A DNA stretch of 64,000 nucleotides from a phage. Shown one piece after another: positions 2,944-44,385 of this stretch. The stretch is from sequence record PV730302.1, one strand, 5' to 3'. Positions within the stretch are counted from its first letter, which is position 1, and the number at the start of each line of letters is the position of its first letter. Below the pieces are notes generated by a model. That model was not told the origin of the DNA and did no database searches. It saw only the letters and a program-made list of their open reading frames with translations. Made by a program: the position numbers and the translations under genes.

Positions 2944-3940
2944 TTCAACAGTAATATACCGTTCTATTGTTACTTCTAAATTTAGAACGGAAAAGATGTA
3001 CAACTTTTACAGAACAATTGGTGATGGTGAAGACCAGAACACGATGTATGTATCTTTCGGGAGAGCCCAACCATGGGCTCCTAACGAAAACGACCCAGGC
3101 TTTGCTCCACCTTATCCTGTAGATGATTCTGAGGGCGTAGAAGACGTCTGGACAAACATGATGGGTTGTGTTAAGGTTTATAAGAGCATGTTGGATTGTG
3201 TTGTTCCTCGCAAAGACTGGGGCGATACCTCTTATCCTAACCCTTTCACTTTCCAAATTGGCGAAATTGTAGTGGCGAATAGCCAACCTCAAAACCGTAC
3301 TGATGTGGGTGCAGGTTGGATGGTTTATCGTTGTGTAGACGTACCGGAATCTGGAGCATGTTCTATTTTATCTCTTGATAACAAAACCGAGTGTATTAAA
3401 CTTGGCGGTAAATGGACTGCTAACGTTCCTTCAGTTAAAGCTCCGGCAGGACAAGGCGATACGGAAGGCATGGTAGACACTGGTGATGGTTACCTTTGGG
3501 AATACCTTTATGAGATTCCACCTGATGTAAGTATCAACCGTTGTACTAACGAATATATTGTAGTGCCATGGCCAGAAGAAATTGCCGAAGACCCGGAACG
3601 TTGGGGATATGAAAACAACCTCACTTGGCAGCAAGATGATTATGGTTTAATTTATCGTATTAAAGCCAATACTATTCGTTTTAAAGCATTCTTAGATTCA
3701 GTTTACTTCCCTGAATTTAGTCTGCCTGGTAACAAAGGGTTTAGACAGCTTTCGATAATTTCTAACCCGTTAGAAGCTAAAGCTCACCCATCCGATCCAA
3801 TCATTAAAGCTGAAAAAGAGTACTATGATGTTATAGACCTCTCCCGCCATTCAGGTGAAATGATTTATATGGAAAACCGTCCTCCGGTTATTCGTTCCAT
3901 GGACCAAACAGAAGAAATTAACATTATCTTCGAATTCTAA
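2933..3940 (+). CDS. gp8: Baseplate wedge subunit gp8
   Basis: 335 aa, colinear with T4 gp8 as recalled; overlaps gp7 stop. Confidence 0.9.
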   Translation: MMINSTVIYRSIVTSKFRTEKMYNFYRTIGDGEDQNTMYVSFGRAQPWAPNENDPGFAPPYPVDDSEGVEDVWTNMMGCVKVYKSMLDCVVPRKDWGDTSYPNPFTFQIGEIVVANSQPQNRTDVGAGWMVYRCVDVPESGACSILSLDNKTECIKLGGKWTANVPSVKAPAGQGDTEGMVDTGDGYLWEYLYEIPPDVSINRCTNEYIVVPWPEEIAEDPERWGYENNLTWQQDDYGLIYRIKANTIRFKAFLDSVYFPEFSLPGNKGFRQLSIISNPLEAKAHPSDPIIKAEKEYYDVIDLSRHSGEMIYMENRPPVIRSMDQTEEINIIFEF

Positions 3941-3943
3941 TAA

Positions 3944-3962
3944 GGGCCGCAAGGCCCTTTCG
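3944..3962 (+). terminator. Short GC hairpin after gp8 (GGGCC-gcaa-GGCCC)
   Basis: 5-bp GC stem directly after gp8 stop; weak T-run. Confidence 0.3.
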
Positions 3963-3966
3963 GGGG

Positions 3967-3974
3967 TATAAATA
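3967..3974 (+). promoter_or_regulatory. T4-type late promoter TATAAATA (gp9)
   Basis: Exact TATAAATA about 27 nt upstream of gp9 ATG. Confidence 0.6.
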
Positions 3975-4000: not shown

Positions 4001-4861
4001 ATGATTAAGCAAACTGGTAAGTTACTAATTGACGTCGGTGAGATTGGTAATGCCAGCACCGGCGACATCTTATATGACGGTGGTGTTAAACTGAACACCG
4101 ACTTAAACAACATCTATAATACTTTTGGTGACCAACGTAAAGCAGCCCTTACAGGCGAAACTACTGGTCAAAAATTACATGCCACCGGATACTATCAAAA
4201 ATTCGGTGATACCGACCAAGCAGGTTCTGTTGATTTAGGCTCTTTGGTGGATGTCGATGCTTCTACCGGTTCTATAGTTTTAACAACTGTAAAAGGAGCT
4301 GTGGGCGAAGGTATTGAAATAATTAACTCTAATGGAAGTATTTCAGCTACCAACTATCTTGAAATCCGTATATTGGATTCGTTTTTGAACCATCCTACAT
4401 CAGCCTTAAGAATAGTAACTCCTTATACACGGGTACTTTTATGGTGTGTAAGTGATATAAACGGTATAGCTGTATGGGATTATTCTATTGAGAGTATGTT
4501 TGGTGACAAACGAGTACCATTAAATAGAACATATAACATTTCTAACGTACCTAGAGATATCCCAGTGGTTTTTTCAGGTCAATATTCTTTAGTTAAGCTT
4601 TTAGTTACGGCAGTAAATGCCAATGAAACCATTTATAAAGCTTCTGAATATCTTTTGTTTATGGATAACCAAGCTAAAAAAATATATTCTACGGAATACG
4701 CTGTTATCCGTCGTGGACAAGCCACTGATGAAGACGAAATTTACAATCTCGATTTTAAATTTGATACATCCAACTATATAGTGGCTACGGCATCATCTGA
4801 AATCCCTATGAGATTGGCAATTAAAGTCGTAGATACCCAAACTATTGGAGTCCCAGTATAA
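4001..4861 (+). CDS. gp9: Baseplate wedge tail-fiber connector gp9
   Basis: 286 aa; N-terminus (GEIGNASTGDIL) matches T4 gp9 as recalled; TATAAATA late promoter upstream. Confidence 0.9.
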   Translation: MIKQTGKLLIDVGEIGNASTGDILYDGGVKLNTDLNNIYNTFGDQRKAALTGETTGQKLHATGYYQKFGDTDQAGSVDLGSLVDVDASTGSIVLTTVKGAVGEGIEIINSNGSISATNYLEIRILDSFLNHPTSALRIVTPYTRVLLWCVSDINGIAVWDYSIESMFGDKRVPLNRTYNISNVPRDIPVVFSGQYSLVKLLVTAVNANETIYKASEYLLFMDNQAKKIYSTEYAVIRRGQATDEDEIYNLDFKFDTSNYIVATASSEIPMRLAIKVVDTQTIGVPV

Positions 4862-6672
4862 TGAAACAAGAATTAAAAATCGGCCAGGCCGTTGACGATG
4901 GCTCCGGAGATTACCTGCGCGCAGGTGGTCTAAAAATCAATAATAACTTTAATGAGTTATATTATCAATTAGGTGATGGAGATAATCCACACGCTGCTGG
5001 TGCCTGGAAACAATATTCTACTGCAGATGGTCCTTTACTTAATGCTGTTATGGGTCATAGCTATACATTGAATACTCAAGGTGGAAGGATTAACGTTCAA
5101 CTTCCTAAAGGCACTCCATCAGAATATAACTTTGTAATTCGTTTACGTGACGTTTATTCTTCTTGGCAAGCTAACCCTGTGACTATTATACCGGCCCCAG
5201 GTGATACAATTAAAGGTTCCGCCGTACAGGTTGAAATAGCTCGTAATTTTGCCGACCTTGAACTTGTTTACTGTGCCCCGGGACGTTGGGAATATGTTGA
5301 GAACAAGCAAGTTAACCGTATTCCAAATAACGACCTCGCTACTGTAGCAACTAAACAGTTTATTGCTACTGAAGGCCAAACTGATTTCTTGGATATTTTC
5401 CCAGGTCTAACCTATAATATTTCAAGTCTTAGCGTTATCCAACGTGGTAACACCTTGTTCTACGGTGTGGATGATATATTTGATGAAGCTACTTCTGAAT
5501 TTGGTAGCCCAGGTACAAACCCAGGCGAATTGGTTGAATTGAACGGTAAAGATATCCGTTTGAAATATCCTTGTGAAGCTGGCGATACGGTAATTATTAA
5601 ATCGTATAACGATGGATTGGCTCAATGGCGCAGTTCTTATAATCGTCGCGATATTACTATTTTAGATACGACCCTTACCCATGAAACCACAGTTAACGGT
5701 TCTAAAGTAGTATTAGACCTTTCTACCGTACAGACTATCACATCGGCAGAATTAAATGTTTCTCCTACAAGCCCTATTAACCCTAATGCTTGTCAGGTAA
5801 TGCTTAATAGTACTTTATTGCATCAAGCTGGTACTGCCGGATTCCCTGCTTTCTATTGTGAAGGTGTTGATACAGATGATGCGGGCCTTTGTGCAGATTC
5901 GGGTGGCGTATGGACGCAATCCAAATCCGATTATATTTTGAATATAGCAGATGACGATAAAATCGAATCATTTGAATTTGGACGTAAACTGGAACATGGC
6001 GATATCCTTACTGTAATTTGGTATAATAATGATATCGGTACCACTATGACTATTGATGAGATTTTAGATACCACAAACGATATCTATATTTCTCAAGGTC
6101 CTTCGGTGTCTTTAACAGGTCAAGTTCGTATTACTGATGTGGATAATCCATTTTCTCCTAACTTTGAACCTGTAGCAGAATCTGAAGTTTCTATTAATAC
6201 GGCAGCAGTGATGTTTGATTTGCTCCACCCTATTGGAACGATTTATGAGAACACTGTGAACCCTAATAACCCTGCAACTTATATGGGTATGGGTAGTTGG
6301 AAACGTCTGTCTGATAGTTTCCTTGTAGGTTGGTCTCCGGATGCTGACTCGTTGTTCAATGCAAACAATAATGATTTAGACTCTGGTGGTGTTCCTAAAT
6401 CTACTGCCGGCGGGACGGGCGGTTCTCATAATATTTCCATTAAATATGAAAACGTTCCTGAACTTAATACAGACGACAAGGTATTAGTTGCCGATGATAA
6501 CGGCCCTATTGTTATTGGCGGATGTTTGGTAGACCCGGATGCCCAAGGCCCGGCTTATACAAAATATCGTGAAGATAAAGCTACGATAAACAAACAGCAA
6601 TCTACAACGCCTATTCCTATTGGCACTTTGCCTCCATATACAACCGTTTATCGCTGGGTGAGGATTGCGTAA
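4861..6672 (+). CDS. gp10: Baseplate wedge subunit and tail pin gp10
   Basis: 603 aa; position and size match T4 gp10; start overlaps gp9 stop. Confidence 0.88.
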   Translation: MKQELKIGQAVDDGSGDYLRAGGLKINNNFNELYYQLGDGDNPHAAGAWKQYSTADGPLLNAVMGHSYTLNTQGGRINVQLPKGTPSEYNFVIRLRDVYSSWQANPVTIIPAPGDTIKGSAVQVEIARNFADLELVYCAPGRWEYVENKQVNRIPNNDLATVATKQFIATEGQTDFLDIFPGLTYNISSLSVIQRGNTLFYGVDDIFDEATSEFGSPGTNPGELVELNGKDIRLKYPCEAGDTVIIKSYNDGLAQWRSSYNRRDITILDTTLTHETTVNGSKVVLDLSTVQTITSAELNVSPTSPINPNACQVMLNSTLLHQAGTAGFPAFYCEGVDTDDAGLCADSGGVWTQSKSDYILNIADDDKIESFEFGRKLEHGDILTVIWYNNDIGTTMTIDEILDTTNDIYISQGPSVSLTGQVRITDVDNPFSPNFEPVAESEVSINTAAVMFDLLHPIGTIYENTVNPNNPATYMGMGSWKRLSDSFLVGWSPDADSLFNANNNDLDSGGVPKSTAGGTGGSHNISIKYENVPELNTDDKVLVADDNGPIVIGGCLVDPDAQGPAYTKYREDKATINKQQSTTPIPIGTLPPYTTVYRWVRIA

Positions 6673-8878: not shown

Positions 8879-10468
8879 ATGATTGACAAACTGAGTATTA
8901 AAGAACTTCCGTTTGTCGATGGTGTACCCGATGCATCCCAAGAGCGTATCCGTTGGATACGCAATGGAGAATGTATTGAAGGAGCCACGACTAAATACGG
9001 TCACGACGGTAATTTGAATGCCCCTGCTTTAGGAGTACAAACCAACGTAGTTAGATTAGAAGAAAACAGTATAGCTTCTAAAGACAAAATTAACGAGCTT
9101 GTGGATAACGTTAATTTGATTAATGAAGCCCTAGATATTTCTACTGATACGGCGGTTATTCAGCAAATTGAAAAGAACCGTGTCGATATACTGGCTGTGG
9201 ATGAAAAGGCTTCCGAAACTAAACAAGAATTAGGTGACTTAACCGTTAATTTTAATTTTTTAGAAGAAGATGTAGGTTATTATGACCCGGCTTTAGACGG
9301 GACTTATCTAACCGTCAGAGAAAATATAAATCTTCTTAAATCTGAAATTGGTCATTATGCGAACCAGGATATAAACAGCCAACCGCTTCCTCCAGGTGAA
9401 ACTTCTGAAGCCACCGGCATGAAACGTCGCATTATGGATAATACCAGTGCTATTGTCGACCATTCACAACGTATAGATACCCTTGAAAAGAATTACGAAG
9501 ATTCTGATGTAGGGCAACTTGGGCTTAAGATTAACGAAATTCGTGAAGAACTCGGCCCTCATATCGATACCATAGGTAAACAACCGGCGTATACCAGGAT
9601 TTCCACTCTTGAAACTGCTGCTGTAAGCTTTAACGAATCAATAGATTCTATCAAAACCAGTATAGGTTTTAATAAAGGCCCTATTGATACAAGAGTAACC
9701 ACTCTGGAAACTAAAACTTCAACTTTAGAAAACACCGTTAATACCGGTTTGGTTCCTAGAGTTACTGCAGTGGAAACCGCTATCGGTACGGCAGATGCCC
9801 CTACTTCTATTAATGGTAGATTAGGTGGCTTACGTACCGATGTTAATGAACTAAAAACTATAGTAGGTGCTAGTTCGTCTGAAGGGCTTCGTTTCCAGGT
9901 TTCCGATATAGACCGTAAAATTGGTGCCGATGTAAGTCCGGCTGCGGGAACAATTAATAAACGTTTGAATGACCTTACGACTCAAGGTAATACTTCAGCC
10001 TCAACTATTCAGGATTTACAGGCTGAAATTGGTAATAACCAAACAGGTATTAAAGGTTCTATTCTTAAAATTACCAACCAAATTGAAGGAACAAACCCTA
10101 ACGGTAGTACTGTAGAAGAACGAGGGCTAATAAACTCTGTTAAAGGCCTTGAAGCTCAAATGCCTACTAAATTGAGTGACGCCCCTGCTGATGGTAAATT
10201 GTACGGACGTAAAGATGCGGCATGGGCTGAAGTTGTTGATGCAGGTACAGAAATAGCTGCAGTAAAAGCTTCTTTAGTAGTTACTGATGGTGAGGTTGAT
10301 GATTTAGGAACTCGTTTAACTGCGGCTGAAGGTAAAATCACTGCACTAGAAACTGAGTTGGCTAAACGCCCTCCTGTTGCTCCTGTGGCTGACGGACTTC
10401 CGTATGTTCTGGTTGATAACGCATGGGTACTATTGTCAGATTTTGTGACTTTAAACCCAGCACCGTAA
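8879..10468 (+). CDS. wac: Fibritin (whisker/neck fibre) Wac
   Basis: 529 aa, heptad-rich coiled coil with foldon-like C-terminus (DGLPYVLVDNAWVLLSDF); followed by rho-independent terminator. Confidence 0.85.
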   Translation: MIDKLSIKELPFVDGVPDASQERIRWIRNGECIEGATTKYGHDGNLNAPALGVQTNVVRLEENSIASKDKINELVDNVNLINEALDISTDTAVIQQIEKNRVDILAVDEKASETKQELGDLTVNFNFLEEDVGYYDPALDGTYLTVRENINLLKSEIGHYANQDINSQPLPPGETSEATGMKRRIMDNTSAIVDHSQRIDTLEKNYEDSDVGQLGLKINEIREELGPHIDTIGKQPAYTRISTLETAAVSFNESIDSIKTSIGFNKGPIDTRVTTLETKTSTLENTVNTGLVPRVTAVETAIGTADAPTSINGRLGGLRTDVNELKTIVGASSSEGLRFQVSDIDRKIGADVSPAAGTINKRLNDLTTQGNTSASTIQDLQAEIGNNQTGIKGSILKITNQIEGTNPNGSTVEERGLINSVKGLEAQMPTKLSDAPADGKLYGRKDAAWAEVVDAGTEIAAVKASLVVTDGEVDDLGTRLTAAEGKITALETELAKRPPVAPVADGLPYVLVDNAWVLLSDFVTLNPAP

Positions 10469-10470
10469 TA

Positions 10471-10492
10471 AAAGGGCTTCGGCCCTTTTTTG
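10471..10492 (+). terminator. Rho-independent terminator after wac
   Basis: AGGGC-ttcg-GCCCT hairpin followed by TTTTTT. Confidence 0.6.
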
Positions 10493-10493
10493 C

Positions 10494-10501
10494 TATAAAT
10501 A
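10494..10501 (+). promoter_or_regulatory. T4-type late promoter TATAAATA (gp13)
   Basis: Exact TATAAATA immediately after the wac terminator and upstream of gp13. Confidence 0.6.
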
Positions 10502-10522
10502 CGGTTATTAGAGGAATAAAAC

Positions 10523-11455
10523 ATGGCAAGTGAATCATTTAACCCTAAGCAACTCAAGGACGCTATCCTGCGCCGCCTGGGTGCGCCGATTACAAATATT
10601 GAAGTAACTACAGACCAAGTATATGATTGCATCCAGCGAGCCCTAGAGCTCTACGGTGAGTACCATTATAACGGGTATAACAAAGGTTATCAGGCTTTTT
10701 ATATCGGCCATGACGATGAAGAAAAATTCCGTAATGGGGTATTTGACCTTAAAGGCCGTAATATATTTGCAGTGACACAAATTTTGAGAACCAATGTAGG
10801 TTCTTTAACATCTATGGATGGGCAAGCGACTTATCCGTGGTTTACTGATTTTGTATTAGGCTTAGCAGGTATTAATGGCGGGCTAGGGTCTTCGTGTAAC
10901 AGTTTTGGACCTAATGCCTTCGGCGCCGACCTTGGTTATTTTACCCAACTAATGCAATATCGTTCTATGATGCAGGACCTTTTGGTTCCACTACCTGATT
11001 ATTGGTATAACGATGCCACCGAACAGTTGAAGGTAATGGGTAACTTTGTTAAAGGCGATTTTATTGTAATTGAAGTTTATACTCGCTCTTTTAATGGGGT
11101 TGATTCTATGGTAGGAAATACCGTAGGATACGGTTATGCTTCAGCTTGTGGTGAAGATGCATGGAGCCCGGGTGCTATTTGGGATAATCCGGCGCGTCGT
11201 ATTTCTGGTATGCGTGTAGGTGAGGACCTTGGTCTTCAAGATGGTGCATATAATAACCGTTGGGTCAAAGATTATGCCACGGCATTGGTTAAAGAAGTCA
11301 ATGGTAATATTTTAGCCAAACACCAAGGCATGCAACTTGCAGGTGGAACCACCGTAGATGGCATTCGATTGATTGAAGAAGCTCGTTTAGAAAAAGAACG
11401 ACTTCGCGAGGAATTAGATTTACTCGACCCACCAACACCTATTTTAATTGGATAA
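10523..11455 (+). CDS. gp13: Neck protein gp13
   Basis: 310 aa; synteny; TATAAATA late promoter at 10494-10501. Confidence 0.88.
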
Positions 11456-11457
11456 TT

Positions 11458-12231
11458 ATGGCTACTTTCGATTCGAGTTTATTCGCTAAGCTAGAAGATA
11501 ATACTGGCTATGCTAACACGAACGAAACTGAAATAATGAACCCTTTCGTCAACTTTTACAAGCATGAGAATACCCAAACATTGGCTGATGCTTTAGTTGC
11601 TGAGTCTATTCAAATGCGTGGTATTGAGCTTTATTATATACCACGTGAATATGTTAAACCAGACCAGCTATTTGGCGAAGACCTTCAGAACAAATTTACT
11701 AAAGCCTGGAAGTTTGCAGGATATTTGGATTCCTTTGAAGGTTATTCCGGTGACAATACTTATTTCAGTAAGTTCGGTATGATGGTTAATGATGAAGTGA
11801 CAATCACAATTAACCCTAACCTTTTTAAACATCAATGCAATGGCACTGAACCTGTTTCAGGCGACTTGATTTATTTCCCAATGGACAATAGCCTATTCGA
11901 AATTAACTGGGTACAACCTTACGACCCATTCTATCAAGTAGGTGCTAACGTCCAGCGTCGAATCACTGCTACCAAGTTCATTTATAATGGTGAAGAACTT
12001 CGTCCTGAATTACAGAGAAATGAAGGTATTAATATTCCTGAATTTAGTGAGCTTGATTTAATGCCTGTTAAGAATATCGACGGATTGGCAGATATCTCAG
12101 ACATTCAATACGAAGAGGTCAACGAGATTAATGCTGAAGCGGCTGAATTCGTACATCCTTATGTTGTAATTAATGGTCGAGGAGAGGATGCTCCTCCTAC
12201 AGCATTTGATGATGCTTTTTTAGATGATTAA
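11458..12231 (+). CDS. gp14: Neck protein gp14
   Basis: 257 aa; synteny with T4 gene 14. Confidence 0.88.
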
Positions 12232-12245
12232 ATAATACATGGCGC

Positions 12246-20012: not shown

Positions 20013-20440
20013 TGTTCCTTATCCCTGATGATTACGAATTAACTCTAGAAAGCGTAGAGGCCAAAATTCCAGAAGCACAGGGACGTTTTGCTGCTCTTTC
20101 TGAAGCGCTCGAGAAAAGCGATATAAATAATCTTGTAGAGAACATGATTGCTGAAGGCAATATCGAATGTGCTATCGCTCTTGGTTCTTTAAATGAATCA
20201 ATGGCTCTTAACGAATTTATAGTTAAACACGTTTCCTCTAAAGGTGAGCTTACTCGTACTAAAGATATTAAAACCCGTCAGCGTAATGCGTTCCAAACGA
20301 CAGGTTTATCTAAAGCAAAACGCCGTCAGATTGCTCGTAAAGCATCTAAAACCAAACGTGCTAATCCGTCTACTCAAGTACGTGCCGAACGTAAGCGTAA
20401 GAAAGCCCGTTCTAAACGTAAAGCTTTTGGACTTAACTAA
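20012..20440 (+). CDS. gp68: Prohead core protein gp68
   Basis: 142 aa, basic C-terminus; synteny. Confidence 0.8.
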
Positions 20441-21075
20441 TGAAACCTGAATTGCTCATCGAACATTGGGGACAACCAGGTGAAATTATCGATGGGGTTC
20501 CTATGTTGGAATCTCATGATGGAAAAAATTCTGGGCTTGCTCCCGGCCTTTATATAGAAGGCATTTTCATGCAAGCAGAGGTAGTTAACCGTAATAAACG
20601 CCTTTACCCAAAACCTATTTTGGAAAAAGCCGTTGCTGATTATATGGCAGAACAGGTTGCTACTAAACAAGCTTTAGGAGAATTAAACCATCCACCTCGT
20701 GCTAACGTTGACCCTATGCAAGCTGCTATCATTATTGAAGATATGTGGTGGAAAGGTAATGATGTTTATGGACGTGCACGTATCATCGAAGGTGACCATG
20801 GCCCTGGTGATAAACTAGCTGCTAATATTAGAGCTGGCTGGGTTCCTGGTGTTAGTTCTCGTGGTCTTGGTTCTTTAACCGAAACCAACAAAGGATATAA
20901 GCGTGTAAACGAAGGTTATAAATTAACTGTCGGTGTTGATGCAGTATGGGGACCATCTGCTCCTGATGCTTATGTAACTCCGAAGCAAATTACAGAATCA
21001 CAAACGGTAGAAACCGATACCAGTGCCGATGACGCCTTTATGGCTCTCGCAGAGGCCATGAAAAAAGCGTTATAA
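20440..21075 (+). CDS. gp21: Prohead core protease gp21
   Basis: 211 aa; position and size match T4 gp21. Confidence 0.88.
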   Translation: MKPELLIEHWGQPGEIIDGVPMLESHDGKNSGLAPGLYIEGIFMQAEVVNRNKRLYPKPILEKAVADYMAEQVATKQALGELNHPPRANVDPMQAAIIIEDMWWKGNDVYGRARIIEGDHGPGDKLAANIRAGWVPGVSSRGLGSLTETNKGYKRVNEGYKLTVGVDAVWGPSAPDAYVTPKQITESQTVETDTSADDAFMALAEAMKKAL

Positions 21076-23920: not shown

Positions 23921-25201
23921 ATGGCTAAAATTAACGACCTTTTAAAAGAGTCGACCATTACTTCGAGTTCTTCGATTGGTCGTCCAAATTTAGTAGCTTT
24001 AACCAGAGCTACGACCAAACTTGTTTATACCGACCTTGTAGCTCAGCAGCGTACTAACCAACCTTTGGCTGCTCTATATGGTATCAAATATCTTACAGAA
24101 AAAGATGAATTATCTTTCCAGACGGGTGCTACTTATTCCGGTGCAGTATCCGCTAAAGACCGTGCCACTATCCCAGTTTTCACTGCAGGTGCTGTTTACG
24201 CTAAAGATGATTTGTTCCAATTTGAAAACGTAGTTTATAAAGCTTTGGTAGCAACACCATTTGCAGGTGCTACTGGTGATGAATACGAACAACTTCAAGA
24301 AGCTATTGTTAAGTTGACTATTCGTATTATGTCTGACGCCGCACTGACTGAGCGTTTTGAAGGTCCTCAAGAAGTAGATATTTCTGAAGCTAAATTCGTC
24401 GTTAATAAATGGAACGCTCCAGTTAAATCCCGTAAGTTGAAGAGCACTGTTACTGTAGAACTGGCTCAAGACCTCGAAGCAAATGGTTTCGATGCCCCTA
24501 ATTTCTTGGAAGACCTCCTGGCTACTGAAATGGCTGATGAAATCAACAAAGATATTCTTCAGTCCCTGGTTACGGTTTCCAAGCGTTATAAAGTTGAAGG
24601 TTTGTGTGATGATGGCTTAATTGACCTGAGTTATGCTAACTCACCAGAAGCTTCTCGCAAGCTTTATGAGATAGTTTGTGAAATGGTTTCTCATATCCAG
24701 CGCGCAACCTCTTATACGGCAACTTATGTGGTAGCGAGTACTCGTGTAGCTGCTGTTCTGGCTGGTTCCGGATGGTTAAGACACACCCCACAGAACGACA
24801 AATATCTTTCTGCAAATGCATACGGATTCCTGGAAAACGGTTTGCCGGTGTATTGTGATACCAACACGCCAATTGATTATGTTACTGTAGGTGTTAAAGA
24901 GGAATTTGGTGGGAAAGAAGCAGTAGGTTCTTTGTTCTATGCGCCGTATACAGAAGGCCTTGATTTGGCTGACCCTGAACATGTGGGTACATTTAAAGTG
25001 GTTGTTGACCCTGAAAGCCTGCAACCATCTATTGCATTAATGGTTCGTTATGCACTGGCTGCTAACCCTTATACGGTTACTGCTGATGATAAACAAGCCC
25101 GTATTATTGATGCGACTAATATGGATTTGATGGCGGGACGTTCTGATATGTCTGTATTGCTTGGTGTGAAACTTCCTAAAGTTTTGACTGAATTAAACTA
25201 A
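23921..25201 (+). CDS. gp24: Capsid vertex protein gp24
   Basis: 426 aa; paralog-like to gp23; TATAAATA at 23884-23891. Confidence 0.9.
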   Translation: MAKINDLLKESTITSSSSIGRPNLVALTRATTKLVYTDLVAQQRTNQPLAALYGIKYLTEKDELSFQTGATYSGAVSAKDRATIPVFTAGAVYAKDDLFQFENVVYKALVATPFAGATGDEYEQLQEAIVKLTIRIMSDAALTERFEGPQEVDISEAKFVVNKWNAPVKSRKLKSTVTVELAQDLEANGFDAPNFLEDLLATEMADEINKDILQSLVTVSKRYKVEGLCDDGLIDLSYANSPEASRKLYEIVCEMVSHIQRATSYTATYVVASTRVAAVLAGSGWLRHTPQNDKYLSANAYGFLENGLPVYCDTNTPIDYVTVGVKEEFGGKEAVGSLFYAPYTEGLDLADPEHVGTFKVVVDPESLQPSIALMVRYALAANPYTVTADDKQARIIDATNMDLMAGRSDMSVLLGVKLPKVLTELN

Positions 25202-38029: not shown

Positions 38030-38050
38030 CAAAAAAGGAGAGCATATGCT
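38021..38050. terminator. Bidirectional terminator between convergent gp54 and ORF 38064..38354
   Basis: Perfect 18-nt palindrome GGAGAGCATATGCTCTCC flanked by A6 and T-rich sequence. Confidence 0.65.
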
Positions 38051-38063
38051 CTCCTTTAGGGGT

Positions 38064-38354
38064 TTATTTACGGAACGAAATGAAACCTGCTGTGGTCATT
38101 AGTGGTTGCTTTTTAACAAACACCGTAACCGAAATAGGAGCTTCGGATTCGAGTTGTCCTGTCACTACACCGTTAAAAATGTTTTCGGTTTGTTCTGGAT
38201 AAGAAAAATTCTCAACAGGTCGGATATCAAACTGTTTGTCTTCACCGAAAACTCGACGTAATTCATTACCCACTGCACTGTCAAACTCTTCAGAAGCAGG
38301 GATAACGTTTTCAACTACCAGTTCTTGACCATTAAAACGGAATGTAGATTTCAT
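38064..38354 (-). CDS. Hypothetical early protein (96 aa)
   Basis: AGGAG RBS 7 nt upstream of ATG; GTTTAC-N17-TACTAT promoter at 38380-38412; terminator downstream. Confidence 0.6.
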   Translation of the reverse strand: MKSTFRFNGQELVVENVIPASEEFDSAVGNELRRVFGEDKQFDIRPVENFSYPEQTENIFNGVVTGQLESEAPISVTVFVKKQPLMTTAGFISFRK

Positions 38355-38379: not shown

Positions 38380-38412
38380 GTAATAGTACCACATCCTTGT
38401 GGTAATGTAAAC
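38380..38412 (-). promoter_or_regulatory. T4 early-type promoter GTTTAC-N17-TACTAT
   Basis: Upstream of ORF 38064..38354; -35 element overlaps alt paralog 1 stop codon. Confidence 0.5.
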
Positions 38413-40538
38413 TACATTTTGAATTTATTTGATAAAGAAGAGATATCCAAAGATGCAGCAAGGATTTCCATAGCCTCGTTACTTTCAGAAATGGATTCAC
38501 TAACCAAGAACTGTTTAAAGCCGTCCATCAGGCGAACTTCACCAGTTTCCATCAAATGGTCACCATCGTAAACAGATTCACTGAGCTCTGAAGGAGGTGT
38601 TACGGTAGCTTCCATAAGGTATTTGTGAGATACTCTATCATTCATGGCAAAAGCCGCTACTTTATCAACCTTCAACAATAATCCACGCGGAAGGATAATT
38701 TCTGCTTCTTCGGCATATTCTGTAAGGTCACCAGGAGCGATAACTTTAACTGCTTCAGCACCTCGAATAACCATACCAATTTCAGCAATTCTATCCGCAG
38801 GACCTTCAGGTGCAATTGGATTACCGAACTCGTCTTCTTCCCATTCTACCTCTTCGTCATCGACTTCACCCACATCAGATGAACTACCGCTAGCCAATTT
38901 AAACAACTCATCAGCGGAGGATAAAGAACCTTCGCCGCCAACAAAAACGGCTTGGTTGTCGAGGGCCATATAATTTTTACCAAATTCACCAAAGATGTTA
39001 GGCTTTAATGAGGCTGACACAAAGTTCTTAAAGTAAAATGTTTTGTTATCGATATTATGGCGCAGAATTTTGTATGGCAAATCCTGACCACGATACAAAA
39101 TAGTACCCTTAGGAAGTTTAATACCCTTAGTAAATGCTGAGTCTAAATCCTTAATCAATTTAATAGCCGTTGTATTGTTTTCGGATTCAGGTTTACCTAA
39201 AAGGAATAAGTTCATAGGAGCATATTCAGCTGCGCAATATTCAATAATAGCATTGCTTTCGTCTTTGGTTAGGTCCTTAGGTTTAATGAGCTCGCCTGAA
39301 TAAGCATATGCATCACTAATAGAATCGTTAACCAGTTTATAAACGGCTTCCATAGCGAAAGCAATTCGAGAGGCCTTTTCTGAAGGAGAACCCTTAAAAC
39401 GAGCACTCAAGTTATTAACAATTTTCTTAATAATATCCAGACTATTGGTTGTATTGATTTGCGAAAGACCACTTAAAAGTCTATCGACTTCTGTATTAAA
39501 AAATGCCATATTATTAGAGTAAATTTCAAACCCTTGTTTATCTCTATTAGCATAATTTAGTTTAAATTTACTATCAGTCATTAAAGCGTGCGTGAGGGCA
39601 ATAGTGTATCTAAAGTTGGCAAGGTCCTCGCTCTTAGATTTAAACTGAGAAGCCTGGCGCATTTTAGTAATAGCACCTTTTTTAAAGTTCTGACTAATCT
39701 GTTCAATACCTTCATTCTCAGGGCCTTCAGCCGTGTGAACCGGTACAGAAGCTTCAAACTCGTTATAAACCTGCAATTCTTTAGGGGACAAAGTTTCAGG
39801 CTCAGCAGTAGAATACTGTGCGGCTGCTGCCATACGACGGGAAATCTTAGTACGGGTAATGACAGCCTTATCAGTACGTTTCTCTTCAACTTGTGCAATA
39901 GATGCCGCTACTGCTTCGACCTTACTTACGGCCTGGCCGGTTTTCTTAGAAACATACACTTCGCCAACTTTAGACTCAACTTTAGTATAAAGATCGGCAT
40001 TAATTTCAGGCATACCCTTGATATCTTCAATATTAGCACCGCGACGTACTAAAAGAACGTAGGTATGTTTTCCGCTGAATTGGAACATGTCGTCAACAAC
40101 TTTAAACTTACCACCGGTACGGGCCATAGCCAAACGAGCTAATACGCGCTGAACGGTAGGGCCTTTACCTTTCATTTTCTTAGTAGGGAAACGGAATAAA
40201 ACCGCGTCCATTTTAAGTTTGTTTATTTGTTCGTATATGGTATCGAAAATGGTGTTCAGTGTACCGAGTGGATCGGTACCCAACCCACCCTTGAGTTCTG
40301 CCGGAGCGCCTTTAGCAGACAAACTCATCAAAATAACATGAACATATTTGTCGCCCGGCTTAACCATTTTAATAGCGTCTCCTTGAGACGCATAAGATAC
40401 CATACGAGCAACCAGATTATCGTTACCTGGGGCTTGGATAGAGAAAATCTGTGGAATACCGGAACCTGGTTTAAGATTTGTTACTGGATAGTTTTTAGCG
40501 GAATCACTATCAAAAACCTCATTTAAATTTTCCATCAT
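38412..40538 (-). CDS. alt: Alt-like ADP-ribosyltransferase, paralog 1 (predicted capsid-packaged)
   Basis: 708 aa; conserved N-terminal half shared with paralog 2; C-terminal R (LYRGQ) / S-x-S (FVSASL) / E (EAEIILPRG) motifs. Confidence 0.85.
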   Translation of the reverse strand: MMENLNEVFDSDSAKNYPVTNLKPGSGIPQIFSIQAPGNDNLVARMVSYASQGDAIKMVKPGDKYVHVILMSLSAKGAPAELKGGLGTDPLGTLNTIFDTIYEQINKLKMDAVLFRFPTKKMKGKGPTVQRVLARLAMARTGGKFKVVDDMFQFSGKHTYVLLVRRGANIEDIKGMPEINADLYTKVESKVGEVYVSKKTGQAVSKVEAVAASIAQVEEKRTDKAVITRTKISRRMAAAAQYSTAEPETLSPKELQVYNEFEASVPVHTAEGPENEGIEQISQNFKKGAITKMRQASQFKSKSEDLANFRYTIALTHALMTDSKFKLNYANRDKQGFEIYSNNMAFFNTEVDRLLSGLSQINTTNSLDIIKKIVNNLSARFKGSPSEKASRIAFAMEAVYKLVNDSISDAYAYSGELIKPKDLTKDESNAIIEYCAAEYAPMNLFLLGKPESENNTTAIKLIKDLDSAFTKGIKLPKGTILYRGQDLPYKILRHNIDNKTFYFKNFVSASLKPNIFGEFGKNYMALDNQAVFVGGEGSLSSADELFKLASGSSSDVGEVDDEEVEWEEDEFGNPIAPEGPADRIAEIGMVIRGAEAVKVIAPGDLTEYAEEAEIILPRGLLLKVDKVAAFAMNDRVSHKYLMEATVTPPSELSESVYDGDHLMETGEVRLMDGFKQFLVSESISESNEAMEILAASLDISSLSNKFKM

Positions 40539-42623
40539 TTACCCTTGGATGAATTTTTCTGGGATGTCATAGAGGTCTATGCATGAAGCCAAAAGAGGCA
40601 ATACATCAAACCGTGTAGATTTAACAAATGAATCAAAAGATACAGGGCTTTCGGAAGTATCGAAGTCATCTTGATATACGACCAACTCGCCGGTTTCCAT
40701 TAGTACGTCACCATCATATACCACAGATTCTTGAAGCTCATCTGTTGTCATAACTTCAGCTTGGATGAGTTTTGTATTACTAGATGTTGTTCCATCATTA
40801 TTAGAAGCATCTGTTATTTTATTAACTTTGACCATTAATCCACGCGGTAGAATAACTTCAGCTTCAGTTGCTATTCCGAGATTTCCTGGATATACGACAT
40901 TAACTTTATGAGCTCCATCAATCGCCCATCCTATTTGAACTTTAACATAATCAGGATTTTCTTTATATGCTCTTATTTCATTAGGATTAATAGTTATTCC
41001 TTCTTCATTTTTATCGACTGTCAATTCATTACGAACTTCCGGTTCTAAAAGACCAATACCTGCGTGCGTAACACCAAAACGTCCAAAAATGATAGGAGTT
41101 AAAGAAGTAGATACAAAATTTCTGAAATAGAACACTTTATTTTTAACTAGTGCTTCGTATATAGGAGCAGTCATACTCTGGGCACGATAAACTGTAATGC
41201 CTTCTGGTATACGGTCACCATTTTCAAAAGCAGAATCCAAATTATTAACTGCGGATTCGATATCTTTTTCGCTCATAACCTCATAGTTCTGAGGATTATA
41301 ACGTCCTAAAAGAAGATTATTTATGTCTGTATATCCTGAACCACAATATTCTCTGATGCCGCGCTTTTGTGATGGGGTATATTTAGAGCCCTCACGAGCA
41401 ATAGTAATATCGACCATAATACCGCCACCCACACCAGCAAAACTATATACACGTTTTTTAATGAACTTGGTCTTGGTGGCTTTCCACTTCGCATCGGTCA
41501 ATTCATTCCAGAGGTCGTCAGGTTGGCCTTTACGAGTTTTGTTATGCCGGGCCAGCCATTCACCTTTGTATTCTTCGAAAACGGTATTAATAGCAGAGGC
41601 ATATTTTTCTAGAGCTTTAACAGATGTCAAAGGTTCGTTTTTGATGGCCGTAAGAATTTTATCTTTAATTTTCTCTTGGATTTCGCCAATACCGTGAAGT
41701 GGGAACAATTTATAGTCGTAATGCAATTCTTCAGCAGTGCCTTCAGCTACTATATTAGCAACCCTATTTTTAGCCGCAGGAGAATTGTTATTAATGACCA
41801 TTTCCTGGGCCTCAGGGATTAATGGAACTGTTGCCGGTTTATTAAAATCCGCTGCAGTAGCTTCATATTTCTTAAACAATTCACTTTCATTACGATAAGA
41901 TTCCAATGATTGGCTTGCTGCAATGGCGCGCCTAGAAATCTTAGTCTTGGTTATAACCATTTTATCAGTGCGACGTTCTTCAACCTTAGCAATACTGCCG
42001 GCAATAGCAGTTTCTTTAGTAACCTGCACACCTTCTTTTTTGGAAATATAAACTTCACCGACATCAGAATCTACCTTAGTATACAATTCAGCATTAATTC
42101 CAGGCATACCTTTGATATCTTCGATATCAGCTTGTTTACGAACTACTAAGATGTAAGTATGTTTACCGGTAAATTGGTACATAGCCGGAACCACTTTAAA
42201 ACGTCCACCGGTTTTCTGTGCTACCAAACGTTGGATAATACGTTGAACGATAGGGCCTTGACCTTTCATTTTCTTGGTAGGAAAACGGAACATCACGGCA
42301 TCCATACGAAGCTTTTTAACTTGGTCATAAACCACATCAAAAATAGTATTAATCGCATCTACAGGAGTAGGGCCAAGGCCACCTTTAAGTTCGGCTGGAG
42401 TACCTTTAGCTGAAAGGCTCATAAGGATAACGTGGGCATATTTATCACCCATTTTAACTTGTTTAATAGCATCACCTTCAGAAGCGTAGGATACCATACG
42501 AGCAACTAATTGGGATTCTGCGTCGCCGATCTTCCAAATCTGGGGTACTTTAAGTTTAGGGTTCAAGTTTACTGTAGGCAGTGTGCCTTCGGACTCAAAC
42601 ACTTCATTTAATTGTTCGGTCAT
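40539..42623 (-). CDS. Alt-like ADP-ribosyltransferase, paralog 2
   Basis: 694 aa; N-terminal region near-identical in places to paralog 1 (MVSYASEGDAIKQVKMGDKYAHVILMSLSAKG); C-terminal YRAQ / FVSTSL / EAEVILPRG motifs. Confidence 0.85.
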   Translation of the reverse strand: MTEQLNEVFESEGTLPTVNLNPKLKVPQIWKIGDAESQLVARMVSYASEGDAIKQVKMGDKYAHVILMSLSAKGTPAELKGGLGPTPVDAINTIFDVVYDQVKKLRMDAVMFRFPTKKMKGQGPIVQRIIQRLVAQKTGGRFKVVPAMYQFTGKHTYILVVRKQADIEDIKGMPGINAELYTKVDSDVGEVYISKKEGVQVTKETAIAGSIAKVEERRTDKMVITKTKISRRAIAASQSLESYRNESELFKKYEATAADFNKPATVPLIPEAQEMVINNNSPAAKNRVANIVAEGTAEELHYDYKLFPLHGIGEIQEKIKDKILTAIKNEPLTSVKALEKYASAINTVFEEYKGEWLARHNKTRKGQPDDLWNELTDAKWKATKTKFIKKRVYSFAGVGGGIMVDITIAREGSKYTPSQKRGIREYCGSGYTDINNLLLGRYNPQNYEVMSEKDIESAVNNLDSAFENGDRIPEGITVYRAQSMTAPIYEALVKNKVFYFRNFVSTSLTPIIFGRFGVTHAGIGLLEPEVRNELTVDKNEEGITINPNEIRAYKENPDYVKVQIGWAIDGAHKVNVVYPGNLGIATEAEVILPRGLMVKVNKITDASNNDGTTSSNTKLIQAEVMTTDELQESVVYDGDVLMETGELVVYQDDFDTSESPVSFDSFVKSTRFDVLPLLASCIDLYDIPEKFIQG

Positions 42624-42658
42624 AATAATTCCTCTTTAATAACCTTATTTATGCCAGA

Positions 42659-42674
42659 AAAGGCCCTAAGGCCT
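42659..42674 (-). terminator. Hairpin AAGGCC-ctaa-GGCCTT downstream of ORF 42678..42860
   Basis: GC hairpin followed on minus strand by TTTTCT. Confidence 0.45.
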
Positions 42675-42677
42675 TTA

Positions 42678-42860
42678 TTAAAGTACTAACAGCGTACGGT
42701 ACACTTCAAATTTAGGACCCTTTTCATAGCGGTCGAAATTATCTTTAAAATCGGCGAACGCGATTTCATTTTCAAATTCAAGGACAATTTGGGACACTGC
42801 AGTGGAGACATCCCCACCTTCTTTATATCCAATAACCACGGTTTCTAAATAAGCTTTCAT
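42678..42860 (-). CDS. Hypothetical small protein
   Basis: ORF 42678..42902 with start moved to internal ATG next to the gp30 stop; terminator hairpin downstream at 42659-42674. Confidence 0.4.
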   Translation of the reverse strand: MKAYLETVVIGYKEGGDVSTAVSQIVLEFENEIAFADFKDNFDRYEKGPKFEVYRTLLVL

Positions 42861-42861
42861 A

Positions 42862-44385
42862 TTATAGTCCAGTTTGAGACCAATCACCAAATACATCTTC
42901 AAATGTATCAGCTTCTGTTTTATCGAAACGCCAACCTTTAATAATTGGAAGGAAAATACCTACGGTATCAGTACGTCCTTTAGAGTGAACCCAACCATTA
43001 CATTCACAGTCGGCAATACGGCCAATCAATTTACCTTCACGAGCTTGTTTCATAAGAAGTTCACGGTCTAAATCAGGACGGTCTTCCAGTGGAATCAATA
43101 CCTTTTTACCTGATTTATCTTTCTTATGGGTAGTATCTTTAAAGCCTGAGCCACAGTCACTTGTAATTCGACGGCAATGTGATACTAATTCAACACCACC
43201 AAGTTTGTTAGGGTCCTTCGAGTGTTCATAATAACCTACCACTTCTAAAGCGATATCTATTACTTCTTTGAACTTGATAAGATTCTTAGAACGGCGATTT
43301 TCCCAGTAGGAGTCCATGTTCTTAAGGATAATACCTTCCAGACCTTGGTCGACATATTTTTTATAAACGACTTTAGCTTCTTCAAGATTATTAACCCACT
43401 GGTTTTCGATAGCTTCAACACGCGTTGTGCCATGCAATACGACATTATGAGCAACCATAAGTTCTAAGGCTGTAAAGCGTACATCATACTTATCGCCTTT
43501 AATTTTACCTTCGGAATATACGACATCCAATGGGACATAATCCCATGCCTGTAATACCATACCAGCGGCTTCAGTAGCCGAAATAGTTCCTTGAAGAGCT
43601 TTGTTAGCCAAGCCATTTGACGTAGAACGATCGGCGACAGTTTGGAATTCCTTAGCCTTACTTAATTCAGGAAGTTCCTCGTCAAACATACTAAACAAAT
43701 CATTAGATGCTTTAGGTTCTACCTTAGGAGTATGGTAAACTAATTCGCCATCAATCATAACGCCATTAGGATGGCGTTGTCGAGCTTCTTCGGTCATGGC
43801 CATTAATTCAGCAGCCAAAAGATTAAGCCCTTGATATTCATTACCACCACGAGTAAGGAATGTCACACCATCGTTACGAACTTCGGCAAAACAACGAGCA
43901 CCATCAGCTTTTAATTGAGCAAACGCTGGCCATTTAATATTTTTCTTAATCAAAGCTTCATCATAAGAACTCGCCAACATCTGCGGTTGTTCAGGGATTA
44001 AACCTTTCCAAACCTTGTTAGCAATAGAAATCGATGCACCACATTCAAGGTCGCGCATCATTACACGACGTAATACCTCGGCATCCGGGGCCTTAGCATC
44101 AGCAATGATTTGAGCCAGTTCTTCAATAGCCGCATTACCCGTAATCTTACGTGTGGCTAATGTGAATTCAGCGAAATCAAGAAGGTCTTCAAGAGTAATC
44201 ATACCAAAGGATTGAGATGTAAATCCAGGTTCTGGCCACTTTTTAATACCGTAGTTCAGACGACGGGTATAAGCCATACGATAAACACGTTTCAGAAGCT
44301 CATTGTCCTTTTCACGAGCAATAATGGCTTCTTTAGCTTTAGTAGAATCAATAGCAGCAATTTCGTTTAAAATATCTAAAATCAT
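42862..44385 (-). CDS. gp30: ATP-dependent DNA ligase gp30
   Basis: Start at internal ATG (MILDILNEIAAID); KADGARCF adenylation motif; strong similarity to T4 DNA ligase as recalled. Confidence 0.92.
   Translation of the reverse strand: MILDILNEIAAIDSTKAKEAIIAREKDNELLKRVYRMAYTRRLNYGIKKWPEPGFTSQSFGMITLEDLLDFAEFTLATRKITGNAAIEELAQIIADAKAPDAEVLRRVMMRDLECGASISIANKVWKGLIPEQPQMLASSYDEALIKKNIKWPAFAQLKADGARCFAEVRNDGVTFLTRGGNEYQGLNLLAAELMAMTEEARQRHPNGVMIDGELVYHTPKVEPKASNDLFSMFDEELPELSKAKEFQTVADRSTSNGLANKALQGTISATEAAGMVLQAWDYVPLDVVYSEGKIKGDKYDVRFTALELMVAHNVVLHGTTRVEAIENQWVNNLEEAKVVYKKYVDQGLEGIILKNMDSYWENRRSKNLIKFKEVIDIALEVVGYYEHSKDPNKLGGVELVSHCRRITSDCGSGFKDTTHKKDKSGKKVLIPLEDRPDLDRELLMKQAREGKLIGRIADCECNGWVHSKGRTDTVGIFLPIIKGWRFDKTEADTFEDVFGDWSQTGL

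Follow-up and report, generated by a model that had tools for sequence, protein, structure and literature searches.

The window analysed here, a 64,000-nucleotide stretch of phage DNA (sequence record PV730302.1) from a JS98-like (Dhakavirus) T4-type coliphage, carries two adjacent genes for ADP-ribosyltransferases of the T4 Alt family, to which we refer as altA (copy A) and altB (copy B). It is quite probable that they specify two functional Alt paralogs that are packaged in the phage head, injected into the host, and distinguished by the parts of the protein that recognize substrates. Both genes are intact and under purifying selection, both retain the catalytic residues of the family, and comparison across genera shows the proteins to be mosaics. 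What the analysis adds to existing annotation is the pattern of this mosaicism: the ends of the proteins track the genus and the central cassette tracks the copy type, with sharp breakpoints that are shared between pairs.

The pair itself is not a discovery. It is already annotated (in IME08 and JS10 the downstream gene is named altb and the upstream gene alta), and the duplication has been published and is common among T-even phages. Nolan et al. (2006) described alt.-1/alt.-2 of T4, and open reading frames (ORFs) of RB49 and 44RR, as paralogous duplications of alt (PMC1524935); Jin et al. (2014) listed an Alt duplication for JS98, Bp7, Ac42 and ZZ1 (PMC4177764); and a remark in a T4 GenBank record attributes alt.-1 and alt.-2 to an old duplication that took in the first part of alt. 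As a finding, the pair is mainly a confirmation of existing annotation, tandem alt genes being documented in JS98-like and many other T4-type phages.

Two intact genes of the Alt family

An earlier note on this DNA, made from the sequence alone, had claimed two adjacent minus-strand ORFs of 708 and 694 aa, and the ORF list matches this exactly:

40539..42623, minus strand: altA, 694 aa, Alt-family ADP-ribosyltransferase with a catalytic cassette of the T4 Alt type
38412..40538, minus strand: altB, 708 aa, B-type member of the Alt family of ADP-ribosyltransferases; in relatives the start is annotated at the second ATG (40535)

The TAA stop codon of altA is followed directly by the ATG of altB, with zero gap, and an AGGG ribosome-binding site for altB lies within the end of altA. 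Neither gene contains a frameshift or an internal stop. Gene order is that of T4: gp29, gp48 and gp54 on the plus strand, then alt.-3, altB, altA, alt.1 and the DNA ligase gene 30 on the minus strand. As is typical of the T4 Alt family, the pair is flanked by gene 54/alt.-3 on one side and by alt.1/gene 30 on the other, and lies on the strand opposite to the baseplate genes.

The tandem arrangement recurs in 32 records (query coverage of at least 80% of the 5-kb locus), representing dozens of independently sequenced phages. Across this locus DNA identity is 97% to Dhakavirus IME281 and 89–94% to JS10, IME08, QL01, MX01 and others. The Dhakavirus counterparts (JS98, JS10, IME08, IME281, C6, PSD9) share the position of the genes, 89–97% of the DNA sequence of the locus and 96–100% of the protein sequence, altA of IME08 and of C6 being 96–99% identical to that of the window. 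Nothing essential sets them apart, although the central cassette of JS98 altA differs, and QL01, MX01, C6, AnYang and fDHCT2 have three tandem alt genes, the extra copy lying between A and B and being absent from the window.

PHROG 802, the family of Alt-like RNA polymerase ADP-ribosyltransferases, matches the two proteins from end to end (altA residues 1-693, E 7e-263; altB residues 1-708, E 1.5e-250), and both exceed the gathering threshold of 23.4 bits for Pfam PF03496 (ADPrib_exo_Tox), with 124.4 bits for altA and 64.1 bits for altB, whose match falls in two stretches. Cluster representatives 96–98% identical to altA and altB carry PF03496 together with PF26846; no NCBIfam model matched either protein. 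The full-length similarity to the T4 Alt family includes the Alt-specific N-terminal module, and by every testable feature altA and altB belong to that family, in agreement with the earlier description of both as Alt-like ADP-ribosyltransferases.

An R / S-x-S / E triad had been read from the peptides LYRGQ, FVSASL and EAEIILPRG of the 708-aa protein and VYRAQ, FVSTSL and EAEVILPRG of the 694-aa protein. All six peptides are present, and no loss of catalytic residues was seen on alignment: the Arg, the first Ser and the E-x-E motif are invariant in alignments with 78 database homologs, which suggests arginine-type (R-S-ExE) ADP-ribosyltransferase activity for both proteins.

Minus strand: altA catalytic residues R480 (41184-41186), S505-T-S507 (41103-41111), E587 (40863-40865) and E589 (40857-40859)
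Minus strand: altB catalytic residues R483 (39090-39092), S508-A-S510 (39009-39017), E611 (38706-38708) and E613 (38700-38702)

Because searches against PDB sequences gave nothing at E<=0.01 for altB, and only weak iota/CDTa matches for altA, a comparison of folds was needed. AlphaFold2 (AF2) models of both proteins match enzymes of the C3/Vis/VIP2/iota type, with an ADP-ribosyltransferase (ART) fold superposable on solved members of PF03496. Foldseek matches of the altB model comprise Vis, C3bot, Certhrax, CDTa and VIP2 (E 4e-7 to 5e-4), and the predicted fold is of high confidence around the active site. The C3/Vis/VIP2/iota-Ia toxins share the catalytic fold and R-S-ExE active site with the two Alts; they differ in being secreted and in having other delivery domains, and identity is only 13–22%. 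A viral fold search returned only Alt homologs and ART-MuF fusions, the latter already described (PMC9503650).

The two proteins are 40% identical overall (BLASTP, E 7e-147), a figure that conceals strong regional differences. The high similarity previously ascribed to the N-terminal half holds for the N-terminal part (66% identity), but extends only to about residue 240 and so takes up a third of the protein, not half. The divergence claimed for the C-terminal sequence is fully evident: residues 241-405 are 11% identical, effectively unalignable, and the catalytic region is 36% identical. At the DNA level the most similar part (N-terminal) reaches 64% identity and the longest common exact run is 17 nt.

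Both genes are maintained as functional genes, as indicated by ratios of nonsynonymous to synonymous substitution (dN/dS, Nei-Gojobori, against Dhakavirus orthologs) far below 1: 0.045–0.076 for altA and 0.038–0.065 for altB, with values below 0.14 in every module and ~0.06 in the catalytic module of altB.

Modular architecture and the age of the two types

A comparison of modules was made among 19 Alt proteins from Dhakavirus, Tequatrovirus, Mosigvirus, Kanagawavirus and Krischvirus. Each protein of the window divides into an N-terminal module (N module), a central cassette and a C-terminal tail:

41904..42623, minus strand: altA N module (residues 1-240), genus-specific; 98% identical to JS98 altA, 66% to altB, 47% to T4/RB3
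40728..41903, minus strand: altA central cassette (residues 241-632), composed of a helical middle domain and an ART domain and ending at L-Q-E632
40542..40727, minus strand: altA C-terminal tail (residues 633-694), predicted propeptide after L-Q-E632; aligns with T4 LTE-619 and is 30–55% identical to RB3
39819..40538, minus strand: altB N module (residues 1-240), genus-specific; 93% identity to the corresponding module of the third QL01 Alt
38577..39818, minus strand: altB central cassette (residues 241-654), composed of a helical middle domain and an ART domain (AF2 model, Foldseek) and ending at L-S-E654
38415..38576, minus strand: altB C-terminal tail (residues 655-708), predicted propeptide after L-S-E654; aligns with T4 LTE-619; low predicted local distance difference test score (pLDDT)

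The N module tracks the genus. Copies A and B are 66% identical in this region and the upstream and downstream copies of RB3 67%, as against 47% for A versus T4/RB3 upstream and 46% for B versus RB3 downstream; in the N-module tree the Tequatrovirus copies form one clade (bootstrap 100%). The catalytic module, on the other hand, tracks the copy type: that of altA has 85% identity with its counterpart in RB3 upstream and 61% with T4 Alt, that of altB is 60% identical to RB3/W143 downstream, and the tree of this module unites the B-type copies across genera (bootstrap 100%).

The second Alt of Tequatroviruses (RB3 'alt.-2', W143) is like altB in its cassette (ART domain 60% and middle domain 45% identical) and in its downstream position. 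It differs from altB in having an N module closer to that of its own neighbour, in having S-T-S, and in being without the acidic insert described below. By its cassette, altB is the ortholog of this second gene, which is intact in many Tequatroviruses. T4 Alt shares family, architecture, neighbourhood, protease motifs at both ends and the R / S-T-S / E-x-E residues with the window pair, and its cassette type with altA. It differs in its N module (46–47% identical) and in that T4 has one intact gene plus the alt.-1/alt.-2 remnant.

Sliding-window comparison places the breakpoints. Between altA and JS98 altA, identity is ~100% to residue ~240, falls to 10–75% from 241 to ~620 and returns to 90–100% in the last ~70 residues: despite the 98% identical N modules the middle domains are 32% and the ART domains 70% identical, and the tails are 100% identical. 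RB3 upstream and T4 Alt show the same breakpoint pattern, and altB and the middle copy of QL01 are 95–100% identical to ~240 and 5–45% thereafter. In these three independent pairs the drop, from 95–100% to 5–65%, comes just after a conserved TKISRR at about residue 240. The comparison of altA with RB3 upstream gives the mirror image: 25–55% in the N module, 80–100% over residues 419-620, and 30–55% in the tail.

The pattern extends to 75 full-length database homologs: middle-domain identity is 35% or less in 45 of the 127 pairs whose N modules are at least 90% identical, and the B-type ART cluster covers two N-module lineages. The helical middle domain co-varies with the ART domain (r = 0.91). 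Because genus-like ends and a copy-type-like centre meet at shared, sharp breakpoints, the central cassette (~241-630) is concluded to be exchanged between lineages, the N module and C-terminal tail staying with the resident genome. As a separate observation, the third Alt gene of QL01 (QL01 locus 4039-6084), with its N module close to that of altB, has middle and ART domains of a third type, 44% identical to altA and 34% to altB.

Since the B-type clade spans genera with full bootstrap support while N modules cluster by genus, the A and B catalytic types predate the split between Tequatrovirus and Dhakavirus. The earlier proposal of duplication followed by specialisation therefore needs revision: two intact copies under purifying selection are indeed present, but the types are older than that split and the cassette is horizontally exchanged. 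The clustering of N modules by genus may reflect old homogenisation, independent duplications with import of cassettes, or co-adaptation to the head. Recent gene conversion between altA and altB was rejected, because synonymous divergence is saturated (dS ~2) even in the N module and the longest common run is that of 17 nt noted above.

T4 itself retains a B-type gene in decayed form. In T4 (strain 147) the stretch between alt and alt.-3 (locus 3553-3973) codes, split over two frames, for the counterpart of codons 1-116 of the RB3 B-type gene (96–97% identity). As alt.-1/alt.-2 correspond to these frameshifted codons, T4 has lost its altB ortholog quite recently, by deletion and frameshift, alt.-1/alt.-2 being the remnants. 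The B type is otherwise widespread. A tblastn search with the altB catalytic domain returned 1222 phage records, ~44 of them at 95% identity or more (Dhakavirus), with T4 at only 35%. Approximately one third of the ranking, a share estimated from an evenly spaced listing, stands at 54–55% identity with two places per record, these being Tequatroviruses that possess a B-type copy; by this estimate a B-type domain of 54% identity or more is present in about a third of the phage records that encode an Alt.

A profile of eight N modules found no match among all PDB sequences at E<=10, and Pfam yielded only scattered single-member noise at the same threshold. A database search with the N-module profile for fusions to other effectors returned four proteins (truncated Alt fragments and an evident chimera) and was uninformative, as full-length Alts were not returned. 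The chimera-like case, a 338-aa metagenome protein (P0124), begins with ~100 residues from the start of a Phi1-like Alt N module and continues as an AMP-binding enzyme; a chimeric contig is a much likelier source for it than a true gene fusion. As a speculative side lead, the N module may be GNAT-fold-like and might bind a cofactor.

Proposed packaging, injection and choice of target

About 40 copies of T4 Alt are present in the prohead core, and the protein enters the host together with the DNA on injection (PMC9026906). The protease gp21 cleaves it at ITE-6 and LTE-619, the latter cut removing a 63-residue C-terminal propeptide (PMC5694885); the action of gp21 on Alt has been described in both reports. 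On alignment, ITE-6 of T4 corresponds to LNE-7 in both window proteins and LTE-619 to LQE-632 in altA and LSE-654 in altB, these correspondences being of motifs only. E7 of altA is nearly invariant, and the Glu of the C-terminal motif (E632/E654) is invariant in 79 homologs. The features that bear on expression and processing are as follows:

42646..42653, minus strand: putative promoter CATAAATA, which differs by one base from the T4 late-promoter sequence TATAAATA and lies 22 nt before the altA ATG
42659-42676, minus strand: hairpin before CATAAATA, seen in the sequence
42631-42636, minus strand: AAGAGG ribosome-binding site after CATAAATA, seen in the sequence
42603-42605, minus strand: E7 codon of the altA L-N-E7 prohead-protease motif, within the N module
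40518-40520, minus strand: E7 codon of the altB L-N-E7 prohead-protease motif, within the N module
38034..38057, minus strand: terminator-like hairpin with T run downstream of alt.-3 (consensus scan; 10-bp stem with 5 G-C pairs)
20440..21075, plus strand: gene for the trans-acting gp21 prohead protease (Pfam Peptidase_S77, E 6e-103), expected to cut both Alts at L-x-E

T4 has a hairpin and TATAAATA at the homologous place upstream of alt. Together, promoter, terminator, motifs and protease gene would fit late co-expression, packaging and trimming of altA and altB. The two genes would probably be co-transcribed from the late-type promoter upstream of altA, and the hairpin downstream of alt.-3 likely marks the end of an altA-altB-alt.-3 transcription unit. 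Each product consists of an N module of ~240 residues and a short C-terminal tail, both tracking lineage, around a central helical domain and an R-S-ExE ART domain. By analogy with T4 Alt, both would be built into the prohead core and trimmed by gp21 after L-N-E7 and after L-Q-E632 (altA) or L-S-E654 (altB). Retained in the head and injected with the DNA, the processed enzymes would use host NAD+ for mono-ADP-ribosylation of host proteins at the very start of infection.

The targets of the two proteins are likely to differ in part. Loops near the active site contribute to substrate choice in C3-like enzymes, and altB differs from altA in three regions: the helical middle domain, the loop before the ExE motif (GNLGIAT in altA, DLTEYAE in altB), and the segment between the Ser motif and that loop. 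This segment of altB (38784-38921, residues 540-585) contains an acidic insert (SSSDVGEVDDEEVEWEEDEFGNPIAPEG, residues ~553-578, pLDDT <50), the one absent from the Tequatrovirus B-type orthologs. It is because loops of this kind influence substrate choice that the substrates of altB are likely to be partly different from those of altA. T4 Alt, the representative of the altA cassette type, modifies RNA polymerase alpha Arg265, MazF Arg84 and EF-Tu, among at least 27 proteins in all (PMC8120803; PMC5512222); such modification of RNA polymerase alpha Arg265 and other targets is known only for T4 Alt (PMC8120803). The altB protein represents a second cassette type, likewise old, in which both the helical domain and the pre-ExE loop are distinct and an acidic insert is added, and it is plausible that this copy is aimed at a different target, such as a defence protein.

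Several observations weigh against two packaged, active and differently directed enzymes. The altB protein has S-A-S where S-T-S is usual (Thr is present in 75 of 79 homologs); this variant is fixed in all Dhakavirus B copies. Its Pfam match is weaker than that of altA and is split by the ~25-residue acidic insert, which is modelled with low confidence. CATAAATA departs from the exact late-promoter consensus by one mismatch, and a promoter scan revealed no separate promoter for altB. No virion proteomics or enzymology for altA, altB or any B-type Alt was found in the searchable literature. Finally, T4 is without the B type at no obvious laboratory cost, and B is therefore dispensable, at least on laboratory hosts.

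Such dispensability would also be expected if the second copy were redundant, both proteins being packaged and active on the same host targets (RNA polymerase alpha and others), with altB raising the dose or buffering variation among hosts. The common catalytic residues and arginine-type ExE agree with this, as does the promiscuity of T4 Alt, with its at least 27 targets (PMC8120803). Plain redundancy, however, should not preserve cassette types that stay distinct across genera (36% identity in the ART domain, 11% in the middle domain, a B clade with 100% bootstrap), nor strong purifying selection on each copy, nor the third and again different cassette kept in some relatives; we regard it as unlikely.

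The packaging of altB is proposed by analogy and a promoter of its own was not found, so that it might instead act within the infected cell, in the manner of ModA and ModB, and not be injected. ModA and ModB of T4, however, are short proteins without an Alt-type N module, L-x-E protease motifs or tail, whereas altB has kept the whole N module, both L-x-E motifs and the C-terminal tail, and follows altA immediately on the same strand, downstream of a late-type promoter. We consider this alternative improbable. Slightly more improbable still is that altB is a weakened or inactive pseudo-enzyme, kept as a structural internal head protein or a binding decoy. The S-A-S motif, the lower and split Pfam score and the acidic disordered insert between Ser motif and ExE loop would suit such a role, but R483, S508, E611 and E613 are retained and invariant in the family, selection on the catalytic module is as strong as reported above, Tequatrovirus orthologs of the B type have the canonical S-T-S, and the predicted fold around the active site is of high confidence. 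That either copy arose by misassembly or is a gene in decay, a prospect which the tandem arrangement and nothing further recommends and which the earlier note had itself raised as a frameshifted pseudogene or assembly duplication, can be dismissed: the low DNA identity and short common runs exclude an assembly duplication, both frames are intact, the arrangement recurs in 32 records, and dN/dS is far below 1.

Significance, analogies and neighbouring genes

T4 is an atypical member of its group. Having lost the B-type Alt, it has provided nearly all knowledge of Alt from one cassette type. The B-type Alt is a widely conserved ADP-ribosyltransferase under purifying selection, probably injected and with its own recognition domain, and an early role in anti-defence or host takeover can reasonably be proposed for it.

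A bolder proposal, which we offer tentatively and think possible rather than probable, is that the alt locus constitutes a polymorphic injected-effector system, in which the N module and C-terminal propeptide would serve as a packaging and ejection 'chassis' and the helical-plus-ART cassette as a swappable warhead, present in two or three versions per genome, the B type being directed at a target other than RNA polymerase alpha, e.g., a defence component or nucleic acid. Polymorphic toxin systems and the internal proteins of T4, the latter with a conserved capsid-targeting sequence (PMC3012670), offer analogies: a conserved delivery part, a sharp junction, variable effectors, tandem variants and exchange between lineages. 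They differ in that the conserved part of Alt is a 240-residue folded module plus tail, with a putative role in packaging, and not a 10-residue signal. No immunity gene was found beside the Alt cassettes, altA and altB abutting without an intervening ORF and alt.-3 and alt.1 being conserved regardless of cassette type; for this reason polymorphic toxin systems are an analogy and not a class to which Alt belongs. Silent cassettes were not identified at the alt locus. For the engineering of cargo into T4-type heads, the sharp module boundaries point to those parts of Alt that might be used as a packaging chassis.

Two small genes flank the pair:

38064-38354, minus strand: alt.-3, DUF5498, 96 aa, directly downstream of altB
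42678-42902, minus strand: alt.1 homolog, Pfam PF24647 'Phage blade protein' (E 9e-29)

In T4, mutants with a C-terminal extension of Alt.-3 evade the CmdTAC defence by blocking degradation of CmdA (PMC11618068). The equivalent of alt.1 in Enterobacter phage IME523 is annotated as a GnsA/GnsB-type toxin; in the window, the alt.1 ORF as listed overlaps the end of the ligase gene, and a shorter start is annotated in relatives.

Elsewhere in the window there are 17 exact copies of the late-promoter sequence TATAAATA, where 7.3 would be expected; most lie at 3.9–32 kb, on the plus strand and ahead of structural genes. This distribution is consistent with T4-type late promoters. Finally, only one gp24 gene for the head vertex (23921-25201, plus strand) is present in the window, with rnlB next to it on the downstream side, whereas IME281, the closest relative, has two tandem gp24 genes (locus 9673-12237): another tandem-copy polymorphism of a head gene in Dhakavirus.

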